Of a stretch of 64,000 nucleotides of DNA, positions 35,442-43,045 are shown piece by piece (position 1 is the first letter of the stretch; each line of letters starts with the position of its first letter). Location of the stretch: NCBI GenBank assembly GCA_035520515.1, contig DAOROH010000003.1, positions 2,754 to 66,753 of the forward strand, in the 5' to 3' direction. This DNA is from Fervidobacterium sp. (GTDB lineage: Bacteria > Thermotogota > Thermotogae > Thermotogales > Fervidobacteriaceae). A program made the translations under genes and the position numbers. Below the pieces are notes generated by a model that saw only the letters and a program-made list of their open reading frames with translations, searched no databases and had not been told where the DNA came from.

Positions 35442-38400
35442 TCACATCCCGCTGATCTGAAGTGTACCAGATGTAGGTTCAAAATAGAAGAACTTATCGG
35501 GCATATCTGTTAACCTGAATTTGAAGTAAATTTTATCTAACATTCCTAAAATATCAGCACCTGACCTGTAAGAAAATTCTGCACCAAGTGAGAATACCCA
35601 ACAATGCAAAGACTTGTCAAAGGCCATCTTTAGATTTGTTAATACTACTTGTTGTGGGTCGTATGTCAGTGATATATTCGTGTTCGGATCTATATTTTTC
35701 ATGTCGGCACTAAGTGTGTATCTGTTATCACCATTGGTGTTGTACGATAAAGAATATTTTTCATTTTTCTTCTCCATAGTATACGCAAATCTCCAGTTTG
35801 GTATTGCATCTTTAGCACTCTTTGTAAAATTTGCGCTCACGGTATTTTTGTAATCAAACATGTAGAAATATCCTGATGCGATGAGGTTTCTTATGTAGTC
35901 TTGAGATTGATAAATCGAAGCAGTAAAATTCGAGTATTTTAGACTGTGAACGTATAAATCAATTTCCGAACCAGGTCTTACAGTAAAACTAAGCGTATAA
36001 GCTAACTGAACTGGTAATACATTAAGACCAAATGATATGTTTTCGTTTCCGAGTTTGTTCTGAACATTATCGTATGTCGTCGAAAGTGACCCTGATAGTC
36101 CCATAATTCCAATATTATTTGCGAATTTTAGTGTGTATGTATCAGGTACTTGCTGGTTTTTCAAAAGGTCCCAACCACGTTTTGTACTTAAGGATAAAGC
36201 ACTTGTAGAAATCTGTGCATTAAGTGTGATTAGGTTCGATTTCGTACTTATTGATTCGTCAACAAATGGGTAGACTTGGTCCCAGTTTGCGGAGATACTG
36301 AATGGCCCTATTGTGTATTTGCCTTCCAACTTATATGTATCTGTCATGTTTATGGCTTCTTTTCGGCTAGTACCTGTAATGTTTAGAATATCCCTTACAT
36401 CGAATAGATATTGGAAATTCAAGCTGAAAGGTCCTGATGAGAACTTCCGAGGTAATTGATAATTGTACGTTATCACTTGATTTTGACTGTTTTCGTACCT
36501 AGTACCTTGTATATTCAATCTGTAATTCCATGGAACGTTTGTTAGAGATAAGCTGTAATTTGCCTGATAGTAGGGTGTCCATGTCTTGTCTAGTCTCGTT
36601 AAATATCCATCAGTCTGAGTGCGCATGATGATGTCTAAACTATTAATTGAAAAAGTATTATCCGGCACTGGCACAAATGAGATGTTCCTAAAGCCCCCGT
36701 TTAGATAAAGAATACTGTCGGTTTGCGCTCCATCGTATGAAAGATAAGGTCTCAAGTACATTTTTCCATCCTTTGATTGGTAATTTAACCCGACTTTCTG
36801 TGAGAAGTTGTTATCGTTTATGTAATTTGATTCTAAATATATGAGCCCATCGTATTTGAAGTAAAGTGTGTTTCTAGAGTAATTGTATCTATAAGTGAGG
36901 GGTAAAATAGAGAATTCAAGCATTCCATTCTTTTCCGAGTAAGTAATTCTATTCTTATTTGTATCTTTCGCATCTACACTTATACCATCTGTCGATGATA
37001 ATCCCAAAGTGAGCGCCCAGTTTTCTATAGCGAATGAAAATGTCTGAGAAACACTGAGCGTGTTGCTAAAAACTATAGAAAAGGTATAAGGAACAGTACC
37101 TTCAAGACCTGTTATGAATAGTGGGTAAGGAAATAAAGGTACATTTAGAACAGTTAAGAACGCACTCTCAGCAATGATGTATTTGTTCTCTATTACGTAT
37201 ATTTTCGATGCCAACACAGTATAGTGTGGCTCATCCAAATTGCATGTTGTTATGTGTGAATTAGTTAGTTCCGCGTTTGTACTGCTTGCATCGTATTCTA
37301 TTGTTGAACCGTAAACGTATATCGGTACATTCTTGTTTTGATAAGTGTAGTTATAAGTAGTCGTTGCGTTAAGGATTAGACTTCTCTCCGTTTCAAATTC
37401 ATATGAAAGATATTTGGAAACATATTTTTGATCATCGAATTTGAAGACTACATTTCCTTCGGCTTCAACAATCTTAATTTTTCCATCAAGAAGTGTTGCT
37501 GTAGCCGTATCACATTCTATTTGATATTTGTCCCAGATAATCTTCACGTCGTCTTTTGCAACGACTTGATCATCATAGAACATAGCGTTGGATGAACTCA
37601 CGTTCACGTCTGATGCCTGTGCAGTTGTACCAATCAACAGAAAGCAAAAGATAGCTATCACAAATAACCTACTCAACAACTCTCTGATTCTGTATGACAA
37701 AGGAGTGTCTAACATCAGGTAAAGTATAAGACCAGTAAGAGCAAAGACTATGTTTGGCAACCAAGTGGCAAGTACTGGATTCATGAGACCTTCCTTTCCC
37801 ATTCCAGATAGCCAAGCACCTGAACCTTGATATAACACAACTATGAGAAATGTGATCACAACACTCCACGACCGACTTGTAAATCCAAAAAGTAAAGATA
37901 CAGGAATACCAATCAATACGATCACTAAAGACCCGAGTGCATTTGCATAGCGCTGATTTAGTTCAACTACTAAGCTTGCCGTATTTACACCGAGTTTTTC
38001 ATAAGTCTGCAGTTGCGCTCTTAGCTCACGAGAAGTCTTGTCTTGTATCGTTCTAGAAGACCTTAGCATGTCCTCTATCTCTCCGGCAACATCCAACTTC
38101 ATCTCTTTGAACTGCATTTCAATCGACATGAAGCCTGTTTCAAGGTCCATTATGTACATGCTACCATCTGTCAAATACCAGCCATCTTTTCTCTTTTCAA
38201 CCTTGCTTGAAGTCACGATCTGCTCATTACTATCTTCATTTCTGAATAAGACAACATCGTACAATTCTCCCTTTGATTGATCATATTCTTTTACATAGAA
38301 ATAGAGATCTTTTTCCAACTCGACAAGCATGTTTGTCTTTACAACACTTTCAGGAGATTGAAGAATGTATTGATTAAGTATTTGAGATGATTTGTAGTTC

Positions 38401-38774
38401 GCTTTCGGAACGACGTAATCTGCGAGGAATAAGGATAATGTCGATAAGACAACTGCCAATATAAAAAATGGTGTAACCAATTTTTTTGAAGATACACCGT
38501 GTACTAACAATGCAGTTATTTCTCTATTAGAATAGAGATCGCTGATAACCCAGAAGATGGCAAAAAGTACCCCAACCGGAATTCCAAGAACGGCAAAATA
38601 TGGGATGTTGTATGCAATGAAGACTAGCAGCTTTGAAAAGCCAACACGGTTTCTAATGATGTAATCTGAGATCTGATACAACCATTCAACACTTACAAAG
38701 ACTATAAAGCCAGCCAGTCCCATGAAAAAAGGTTTCAAAGATAACTTTAACGTGTATTTTGTCAGTATCTTCAA
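35442..38774 (-). CDS. LptF/LptG-family permease fused to an LptD/OstA-like outer-membrane protein
   Basis: N-terminal ~360 aa has 3 TM, a periplasmic beta domain and 3 TM, with EITALLVHGVS..LVTP and WLPNI motifs. This is followed by a signal-peptide-like segment ending AQA, an OstA-like beta region, TTCNLDEPHY, VPLFPYP, ~550 aa of amphipathic beta-strands and a C-terminal LHCW motif. Confidence 0.82.
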   Translation of the reverse strand: MKILTKYTLKLSLKPFFMGLAGFIVFVSVEWLYQISDYIIRNRVGFSKLLVFIAYNIPYFAVLGIPVGVLFAIFWVISDLYSNREITALLVHGVSSKKLVTPFFILAVVLSTLSLFLADYVVPKANYKSSQILNQYILQSPESVVKTNMLVELEKDLYFYVKEYDQSKGELYDVVLFRNEDSNEQIVTSSKVEKRKDGWYLTDGSMYIMDLETGFMSIEMQFKEMKLDVAGEIEDMLRSSRTIQDKTSRELRAQLQTYEKLGVNTASLVVELNQRYANALGSLVIVLIGIPVSLLFGFTSRSWSVVITFLIVVLYQGSGAWLSGMGKEGLMNPVLATWLPNIVFALTGLILYLMLDTPLSYRIRELLSRLFVIAIFCFLLIGTTAQASDVNVSSSNAMFYDDQVVAKDDVKIIWDKYQIECDTATATLLDGKIKIVEAEGNVVFKFDDQKYVSKYLSYEFETERSLILNATTTYNYTYQNKNVPIYVYGSTIEYDASSTNAELTNSHITTCNLDEPHYTVLASKIYVIENKYIIAESAFLTVLNVPLFPYPLFITGLEGTVPYTFSIVFSNTLSVSQTFSFAIENWALTLGLSSTDGISVDAKDTNKNRITYSEKNGMLEFSILPLTYRYNYSRNTLYFKYDGLIYLESNYINDNNFSQKVGLNYQSKDGKMYLRPYLSYDGAQTDSILYLNGGFRNISFVPVPDNTFSINSLDIIMRTQTDGYLTRLDKTWTPYYQANYSLSLTNVPWNYRLNIQGTRYENSQNQVITYNYQLPRKFSSGPFSLNFQYLFDVRDILNITGTSRKEAINMTDTYKLEGKYTIGPFSISANWDQVYPFVDESISTKSNLITLNAQISTSALSLSTKRGWDLLKNQQVPDTYTLKFANNIGIMGLSGSLSTTYDNVQNKLGNENISFGLNVLPVQLAYTLSFTVRPGSEIDLYVHSLKYSNFTASIYQSQDYIRNLIASGYFYMFDYKNTVSANFTKSAKDAIPNWRFAYTMEKKNEKYSLSYNTNGDNRYTLSADMKNIDPNTNISLTYDPQQVVLTNLKMAFDKSLHCWVFSLGAEFSYRSGADILGMLDKIYFKFRLTDMPDKFFYFEPTSGTLQISGM

Positions 38775-38917
38775 AAAATTCCACCCCAACTCGCGATTGT
38801 CATGTGAATTACAACTCTCTTACTTCATCGACTAGACTTCTACTTGGAAGTAATCTTGCTAAAAGAGTTTTAGCTTCCACAAGCATACTCTTTTGATTTT
38901 GATATTTACTCCGATAT

Positions 38918-42535: not shown

Positions 42536-43045
42536 TCATCCTTCCTTTCCAAAAGTTGACACCTCAGCTTTCAACGGTATATCTAACTTCATTCCGTATC
42601 TTCCAATATCAAACTTGACCTTTACAAACCCTTCAAGGTAAACTTTGGAATCACCATCTCTAAACTCTTCGAAAATCTGCACGTCAGAAATCTTGATTAA
42701 AAAGCTCTTACCTGCGTCCCTGACATAATCAGCAGTCCAGCTACCCATATCTTTCCCTTCTTCATTGCTCATACTTAGTTGTATCAACTCTATCTCGTAC
42801 GGTATAGTGGAATCAATAGTAATATTTCCATAGCATTCAACTGTCATACCATTTATCGAACAATCACTTAGCGCAAGTCTTGCGTTAACTTCCTTTAATG
42901 ATAAAAAGCTATGCTTCAGATTATCGAGTGAAGCAATCAACAGAAATAATGAAGTTGCAAAAATGACAACTAAGATCAAAGTGTAGAGATAAAACCCCTT
43001 AGAATTACTATTCGCCGTGATTTTCATAGATGTAGTCAGCCTCAT
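42536..43045 (-). CDS. Hypothetical membrane-anchored protein
   Basis: 169-codon ORF overlapping the ruvB start region. One N-terminal TM followed by a beta-rich domain. Confidence 0.65.
   Translation of the reverse strand: MRLTTSMKITANSNSKGFYLYTLILVVIFATSLFLLIASLDNLKHSFLSLKEVNARLALSDCSINGMTVECYGNITIDSTIPYEIELIQLSMSNEEGKDMGSWTADYVRDAGKSFLIKISDVQIFEEFRDGDSKVYLEGFVKVKFDIGRYGMKLDIPLKAEVSTFGKEG

Follow-up and report, generated by a model that had tools for sequence, protein, structure and literature searches.

The systems closest to the one analyzed here are the canonical Lpt machinery of Escherichia coli and its relatives (LptB2FGC-LptA-LptDE), the Lpt system of Acetonema longum, described as having a single homodimeric LptF/G subunit, an atypical barrel and no LptE, and as carrying lipopolysaccharide (LPS) with components encoded by separate genes (PMC13018214), and the 'pABC permease' of Thermotoga maritima (G4FGC1 / Q9X257), which was found in toga samples (Sexton et al. 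2023 PNAS, PMC10160955). In the last of these studies, LptF/G, LptA and LptD domains were recognized in the permease, which was drawn as one envelope-spanning fusion, noted to be conserved throughout the phylum and suggested to carry lipids to the toga; its main text places G4FGC1 among proteins with 'Sec-dependent signal sequences', without locating the signal or mentioning a cut. Here, we examine an orthologue of G4FGC1 with identical architecture, encoded by an uninterrupted open reading frame (ORF) on the reverse strand of a 64,000-nucleotide stretch of Fervidobacterium sp. DNA (assembly GCA_035520515.1, contig DAOROH010000003.1, positions 2,754 to 66,753), hereafter the window. A preliminary description of this ORF had treated the fusion as new, a claim that falls to the 2023 report of its presence in T. 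maritima and throughout the phylum (PMC10160955). Our reading differs from the published model in that LptA is a separate gene, the jellyroll is assigned to the N-terminal domain of LptD, and the junction is taken to be a cleaved signal peptide.

The LptF/G fold, the LptD jellyroll and barrel, the LptB ATPase and an LptA-like bridge protein of the canonical system are present here too, whereas in most genomes there is one LptF/G gene, fused to LptD, and no LptE (by Pfam), separate LptC or lpxC was found. The polyproteins of flaviviruses and bunyaviruses are cut by signal peptidase at internal signal sequences to give several membrane products; they share with the fusion the principle of one precursor with internal signal peptides, but involve a eukaryotic endoplasmic reticulum enzyme and viral genes, and are not homologous to it. 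In Staphylococcus aureus, the type I signal peptidase (SPase I) SpsB frees the external C-terminal domain of LtaS, a polytopic membrane protein, by a regulated cut between the membrane and external domains (PMC12260438); that cut inactivates one enzyme, while a cut in the fusion would give two working subunits for two membranes. We propose, as the likely reading, that the fusion is a precursor which is inserted by Sec and cut by SPase I after its seventh helix, the LptD part going to the toga, and an LptF/G homodimer together with LptB passing a non-LPS lipid to LptA and LptD. The gene and the fusion were known, but this processing model and the evidence for a cut were not found in print, and neither was any other cleavage or polyprotein reading of the fusion, in a literature search that reached a minority of subscription papers.

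The ORF is open for 1115 codons, and the LptF/G topology assigned to its first part in the preliminary description holds, the Pfam family PF03739 matching at 246.7 bits (cut-off 27.9) over profile positions 1-352 of 353 (residue numbers throughout are those of the 1115-amino-acid (aa) translation from the first TTG, unless stated). In a structural model of residues 6-570, analyzed with DSSP, the LptF/G fold of three helices, a periplasmic beta-jellyroll and three further helices leads into a seventh helix, then a loop of three low-confidence residues at the c-region, and finally the LptD jellyroll. Foldseek aligned this model to LptF and LptG chains with a best E of 2.4e-14 and target TM-scores of 0.6-0.7; the predicted TM-score (pTM) of 0.56 does not fix the relative orientation of the LptF/G and jellyroll parts. 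The subunit equivalogs TIGR04407 and TIGR04408 stayed below their cut-offs on the LptF/G part (134.8 of 230 and 127.8 of 240 bits), which by its sequence is best described as a single undivided F/G subunit. Because most Thermotogota genomes hold only one LptF/G gene (a single PF03739 match), this subunit would be expected to work as a homodimer.

The part behind the junction was examined separately by profile hidden Markov model (HMM) and structure, and is LptD-like, as had been claimed. Pfam LptD_N matched residues 407-529 just under its cut-off (E 0.0023) and reached E<=0.01 in 14 of 39 orthologue C-terminal parts, and the family profile aligns to Neisseria gonorrhoeae LptD, including the T-T-C cysteine and the V-P-L-F-Y motif. 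The jellyroll superposes on the N-domain of LptD chains with a root-mean-square deviation (rmsd) of ~3-4 A over ~175 residues, and an LptA domain within the fusion was rejected, the jellyroll being closer to the LptD N-domain (E 4e-10 versus 2e-4). A model of residues 393-1115, built from a 39-row alignment, is almost all beta (mean local confidence, pLDDT, 89; pTM 0.54). The first 14 Foldseek matches listed for it are all LptD (E 4.6e-19 to 9.7e-14), with query TM-scores of only 0.28-0.37, and the top three VIA-align matches are likewise LptD (Z 17.7, 17.2 and 16.4; rmsd 9-14 A), with LptH and LptA next in rank. Behind the jellyroll, the model has about 39 strand elements versus 26 strands in LptD, and the barrel families PF04453 and PF19838 matched none of the 39 orthologue C-terminal parts; on the model, the predicted barrel is an atypical one. 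Outside the fused set, the closest relatives are for the most part stand-alone proteins of ~600-800 aa, and the 15 nearest that were inspected all start with signal-peptide-like stretches, most of them also having a C-terminal L-H-C-type motif and three matching PF04453 and/or PF19838. The ORF has cysteines at residues 382, 426, 516 and 1063, and the codons of A-Q-A (37622-37614), C516 and C1063 lie where the preliminary description put them. The T-T-C cysteine is invariant in the 39 rows of the family alignment, and the C-terminal cysteine is found in 41 of 46 orthologues and clearly lost in four (L056, L057, L064 and L065), where L-H-H or L-H-K replaces it and the T-T-C cysteine is retained; an LptD-type disulfide is thus not universal in the family. 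Orthologues of family f9 (L075-L080) have 1426-1466 aa and are ~350 residues longer than the Fervidobacterium ORF, with all of the extra length in the barrel region.

One indication that the two parts are separated comes from published T. maritima proteomics. The T. maritima ORF (G138) reproduces the peptide indices and mass published for G4FGC1 (1061 aa, 122.16 kDa) and carries all three family-profile regions; its junction reads L-F-S, with the predicted cut after residue 382. All 41 G4FGC1 rows of Dataset S4 (PMC10160955), representing 27 distinct peptides from two toga samples, fall at residues 411-1020, past this predicted cut. When tryptic peptides of 7-25 residues and moderate hydrophobicity were counted in silico as detectable, none of the 11 from the LptF/G part had been seen, versus 23 of the 47 from the LptD part (Fisher p 0.0018, with a range of 0.0007-0.0018 when four filters were tried). 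The jellyroll alone, which makes for the fairer comparison, gave 4/9 against 0/11 (p 0.026). In these samples, polytopic inner-membrane permeases with fewer spectra than G4FGC1 are represented by peptides from their loops and periplasmic parts (TM_0503 with 7-9 spectra and TM_1836 with 27, versus 38 and 77 for G4FGC1). Since an intact chain would supply both sets of peptides equally, the asymmetry speaks for a cut. The predicted mature N-terminal peptide and five LptB peptides had no match among the rows listed in Dataset S4, a file that breaks off near its end; this is uninformative for the former because the search was fully tryptic. Dataset S5 has no rows for TM_1054 or TM_1053 (both guessed locus tags), signal peptidase, SecY or Lpt, and the toga band tables of Petrus 2012 gave no match for the guessed tags.

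The junction itself has the features of a Sec/SPase I signal, namely a basic n-region, a hydrophobic h-region, a lineage-typical c-region and the usual spacing. In fused orthologues, helix 6 is followed by a conserved helix and then by basic residues, a hydrophobic segment and a few polar positions. The segment YRIRELLSR, assigned to the n-region in the preliminary description, does double as one, but belongs to the conserved C-terminal helix of LptF/G, just after which the unfused LptF/G proteins of the phylum stop. The A-X-A emphasized in the same description was rejected as the conserved signal, as the plain -3/-1 rule passes in 48 of 48 orthologues at helix 7 but also in 48 at transmembrane helix (TM) 5 and 45 at TM2. 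What is conserved across the orthologue alignment, along with the fusion itself, is x-[F/Y]-[S/A/G], present at the junction in 38/48 versus 17/48 after TM3 and 0-12 after the other helices. A cut-site motif was learned, without a prior at -2, from 111 crude N-terminal signal-peptide candidates of the window's genome; it shows F at -2 (frequency 0.69) and A, S or G at -1. Scores of at least 5 bits for this motif were reached by 23/48 junctions and by 0, 1, 5, 4, 0 and 0 of 48 at TM1 to TM6, respectively (training set, 86/111), and the spacing between the final K/R and the cut has a median of 16 both in the junctions and in the training signal peptides. For T. maritima, proteomics established L-F-A as the SPase I motif (n=16; Payne 2012). 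The two closest aligned relatives of the Fervidobacterium ORF likewise end in Q-A at the junction, and its A-Q-A, as judged from the alignment, is a local variant of the phylum motif. The signal peptidase gene lepB is present in the window's genome.

Nature has also separated the two parts at the gene level. PF03739 was found in 148 of 151 Thermotogota genomes, mostly as one match in a frame of ~1050-1490 codons. From these, 60 regions were taken non-randomly, about one per genus plus short frames that had been noticed; one was an empty placeholder, and the 59 informative loci, which represent 47 of the 48 genera sampled, comprise 48 fusions, two that reach the contig end beyond helix 7 with no stop codon, and nine split loci. 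The fusion is thereby present in 42 of 47 genera, and an overlapping scan of named records in the same collection gave 66 fused, six truncated and seven split of 79. In all three genomes of genus g46, a 387-aa LptF/G ends right after its last helix and LptD directly follows (4 nucleotides later in L040, where phoU lies upstream as in the window), beginning with an ordinary N-terminal signal peptide ending in F-S. Both the LptF/G tree (SH-aLRT support 99) and the LptD tree (support 100) place this genus within family f10, which is otherwise fused. In family f7, four genera have two LptF/G genes and an unlinked, stand-alone LptD with an ordinary signal peptide, which in the LptD tree nests among the fused f7 proteins. 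The trees are unrooted and lack an outgroup, the LptF/G tree is a quick one, and the direction of change in f7 is our inference; the split f7 copies of LptF/G sit on long branches, from which the ancestral state of the two-gene arrangement is unreadable. The split genes in g46 and f7 imply that the covalent link is dispensable in those lineages. In the f7 loci with a separate LptD (L036, L037, L038, L039, L044 and L045), the two LptF/G genes are diverged tandem copies on long branches and may represent a return to an F/G heterodimer. At another locus (L052:5596-9048, genome G078), two ORFs of 755 and 378 aa stand in place of the fusion, the break lying in the barrel and reflecting a sequencing error or a real split. 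Outside the phylum, word-based searches for fusions returned almost only Thermotogota, and a profile-HMM search found divergent LptF/G-LptD-like fusions (P0212, labelled Bacillota, and P0225; P0100 is a further one), P0212 having an Ala-rich A-A-A site after its seventh helix.

Neither lptA nor lptB lies in the window, as had been stated, and lptB and an lptA-like gene are found elsewhere in the genome, which is 83% complete. lptB scores above the TIGR04406 cut-off on contig C20, where it is cut by the contig end, and in 5/5 other genomes, and a 227-aa LptA-like protein with its own signal peptide ending in I-F-A is encoded at G000:C27:3703-4386. The T. maritima orthologue of the latter, TM_0714, was recorded in the toga samples with 4-5 spectra (PMC10160955). 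LptC matches occurred in 18/86 genomes, mostly on the LptA-like gene, and no separate LptC was found among them; LptE (PF04390) was found in 0/86 genomes with positive controls, although a diverged partner may exist. The search of the window's genome gave no lpxC, which was found in 0/119 genomes overall while four control genomes were positive, in support of the non-LPS cargo suggested earlier. Patches of toga lipid are enriched in glucose-headed lipids (PMC10160955). By eye, the lptA-like gene stands directly after (L108:82-1869) or three genes after (G000:C27:586-4386) a gene resembling an Omp-alpha-type S-layer homology (SLH)/coiled-coil toga anchor, and lptB directly follows a small skp/ompH-like gene in both genomes examined (L097:995-2202; L100:988-2202).

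Under the proposed mechanism, Sec would insert six helices, and helix 7 would then export the C-terminal 723 residues. SPase I would cut after A392 (after L-F-S, residue 382, in T. maritima), a step with indirect proteomic support, and BamA would fold the 82.6 kDa LptD piece into the toga. The seven-helix LptF/G piece would stay in the inner membrane, where two 44 kDa pieces would form a homodimer with the separately encoded LptB, and the LptA-like protein, probably in several copies, would bridge both pieces non-covalently across the wide periplasm. The cargo would be a lipid other than LPS, with the toga-enriched glucose-headed glycolipids as the most plausible candidates. The fusion may have originated in an old joining of lptF/G and lptD in which LptD kept its own export signal. 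The internal signal and cleavage suggested in the preliminary description are thus supported by the peptide map, the motif and the split genes, but the fixed 1:1 ratio it predicted is not supported at steady state: the parts would be made 1:1, yet only the LptD part was seen in the proteome, and a single LptF/G gene implies a homodimer.

Several observations weigh against cleavage or its details. In sample TM3 of the published proteome, the LptD jellyroll is also unseen (0/9), with detection declining towards the N-terminus. Dataset S4 shows no more than 16 of the 25 unique G4FGC1 peptides in one sample and 25 of the 37 in the other, and the unlisted 111 and 122 residues could hold LptF/G peptides; the 9 and 12 peptides omitted per sample probably lay below the 95% threshold, an omission that also affects the control proteins. 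The LptF/G piece was seen in no fraction, the inner-membrane ('IM') samples having none of 27 permease rows and no G4FGC1 spectra (PMC10160955), so that the data show an excess of the LptD part and not the location of the LptF/G part. The published Mascot search was fully tryptic, hence the mature N-terminal peptide could not appear and the cut was not directly observed, and the proteome is that of T. maritima, an organism other than that of the window. At the junction, the plain -3/-1 rule fits other helices as well as helix 7, 25/48 junctions score below 5 bits, and the site of the Fervidobacterium ORF is not of the F-type, the learned motif preferring a position five residues earlier (4.6 bits). 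Furthermore, the low identity of helix 7 (0.21) is equalled by the adjacent jellyroll (0.22), and the orthologues are related to one another, so that the junction counts are not independent. Finally, the spectra of TM_0714 are too few to resemble a long LptA chain per LptD.

Some of these points would favor an uncut covalent bridge, with helix 7 as a permanent inner-membrane anchor and the jellyroll leading straight into the toga barrel, possibly at local membrane contacts. This is the published hypothesis (Sexton et al. 2023, PMC10160955), and it is in keeping with the retention of the fusion in 42/47 genera sampled, with a cut product that was not directly seen, and with unlisted low-confidence peptides that could fall in the LptF/G part. 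The T. maritima periplasm, however, measures 70 +/- 10 nm on the cell flanks, and the complete minimal E. coli Lpt bridge spans ~16 nm (PMC5575297). In the model, the first jellyroll strand begins 3-4 residues after the predicted site, without a linker, and an uncut chain is disfavored because one jellyroll of ~170 residues would have to span the ~70 nm. A bridge of this kind is also at odds with the 0/11 versus 23/47 peptide asymmetry, with the split genes of two lineages, with the conservation of a free LptA-like gene, and with a model in which the orientation of the parts is not fixed (pTM 0.56) and the site lies in a low-confidence loop. The preliminary description had offered the uncut bridge as an equal alternative, but given the periplasm width and the natural gene fissions we consider it highly improbable.

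A cut that is slow, partial, conditional as in LtaS, or made by a protease other than SPase I would produce the same peptide asymmetry, with full-length and cut forms coexisting and the cut timing the release of LptD. Cleavage of LtaS by SPase I is regulated (PMC12260438), and many junction c-regions score below ordinary signal peptides (median 4.5 versus 7.8 bits), but motif and spacing fit the ordinary SPase I substrates of the phylum, a like signal peptide serves at the N-terminus of LptD in the split lineages, and no full-length form is evident among the listed peptides, which makes this variant improbable. The cargo is a separate question from that of cleavage: with processing as proposed, the main cargo could be surface lipoproteins or lipid-anchored proteins rather than free glycolipid. 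The lack of lpxC in 119 genomes and the reported export of lipoproteins via LptD homologues in Bacteroidota and in LPS-free Borrelia agree with such a role, and the ~39 modelled strands versus the 26 of LptD could mean a wider pore. Few lipoprotein signals were found in the window's genome, however (5/116 candidates in a crude scan), and the glucose-headed lipid patches reported for the toga need a route, so that a protein cargo is doubtful.

Returning to cleavage by SPase I, we lean, with some reserve, towards extending it to the whole phylum: a polyprotein that would be cut into a homodimeric LptB2(F/G)2 pump and an LptE-free barrel of possibly more than 26 strands, connected over 70 nm by a free LptA chain, would have reverted to separate genes at least twice, and would have a similar Bacillota fusion with an Ala-rich site as its counterpart. 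The fusion bears on how the LPS-lacking Thermotogota supply lipid to the toga, and the polyprotein reading, if true, would replace the published covalent-bridge model. A cut would mean that a conventional, non-covalent Lpt bridge is reached by an unusual route, from a chromosomal bacterial polyprotein with products for two membranes. Database entries call the fusions of 1100-1470 aa simply 'LptF/LptG permease', a name under which LptD would escape surveys that trace outer-membrane evolution by gene presence and absence; one such survey gives the Thermotogae as lacking nearly all outer-membrane genes except bamA.

The features of the locus are collected in Table 1. The ORF is flanked in the window by phoU and tilS, and the named close relatives of its protein are from Fervidobacterium. 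Its true start is probably the TTG at 38774, which has the Shine-Dalgarno-like run 6 nucleotides upstream and aligns with the Met of most orthologues; all residue numbers would then be 5 lower. An assembly artefact or recent stop loss was ruled out, as contigs from two other runs (X15, X17) cover the entire ORF without an indel and 48/59 informative loci are fused; a further run (X10) covers the junction, and a fourth (X7) contributed no contig.

Table 1 Features of the LptF/G-LptD fusion locus, in window positions.
Feature	Position	Strand	Basis and remarks
Whole ORF, LptF/G-signal peptide-LptD precursor	35442..38789	-	uninterrupted; 1115 aa from first TTG, 1110 aa from likelier TTG at 38774
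Shine-Dalgarno-like GGGGTGG (38787-38781) and probable start TTG (38774-38772)	38772..38787	-	sequence; most orthologue starts align here
LptF/LptG permease domain, residues 11-358 (3 helices, periplasmic beta domain, 3 helices)	37716..38759	-	Pfam PF03739 E 4.6e-73; model; Foldseek
Conserved LptF/G C-terminal helix, residues 361-374, basic, doubling as n-region of the internal signal	37668..37709	-	also ends unfused LptF/G proteins
h-region / seventh helix, residues 375-387	37629..37667	-	helix in model; 21% mean identity across 48 orthologues versus 42-79% for TM1-6
c-region T-T-A-Q-A, residues 388-392; predicted SPase I cut between 37614 and 37613	37614..37628	-	low-confidence loop in model; orthologues x-F-[S/A/G]
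LptD N-terminal beta-jellyroll, ~residues 393-562, with T-T-C (C516, 37244-37242) and V-P-L-F-P-Y-P	37104..37613	-	profile alignment to N. gonorrhoeae LptD; structure rmsd
LptD-like all-beta C-terminal region, predicted outer-membrane barrel, with L-H-C-W (C1063, 35603-35601)	35445..37088	-	model pLDDT 89; Foldseek and VIA-align

Some minor observations were made alongside. In Dataset S5 (PMC10160955), all 27 'permease' rows and both YidC rows belong to toga samples and none to IM samples, and the first listed IM rows are cytoplasmic enzymes and ribosomal proteins; the toga and IM fractions were seemingly not cleanly separated, which bears on the protein and lipid enrichment claims of that study. 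A 169-aa ORF just upstream of ruvB in the window (42536-43045, reverse strand) has no Pfam match at E<=1. The 809-aa protein P0034 shows, by eye, two tandem LptF/G domains and shares only the permease domain with the fusion. A 1-kb contig (L137), filed under Candidatus Bathyarchaeota, codes for a fragment with 66% identity to the fusion protein, and probably represents binning contamination.

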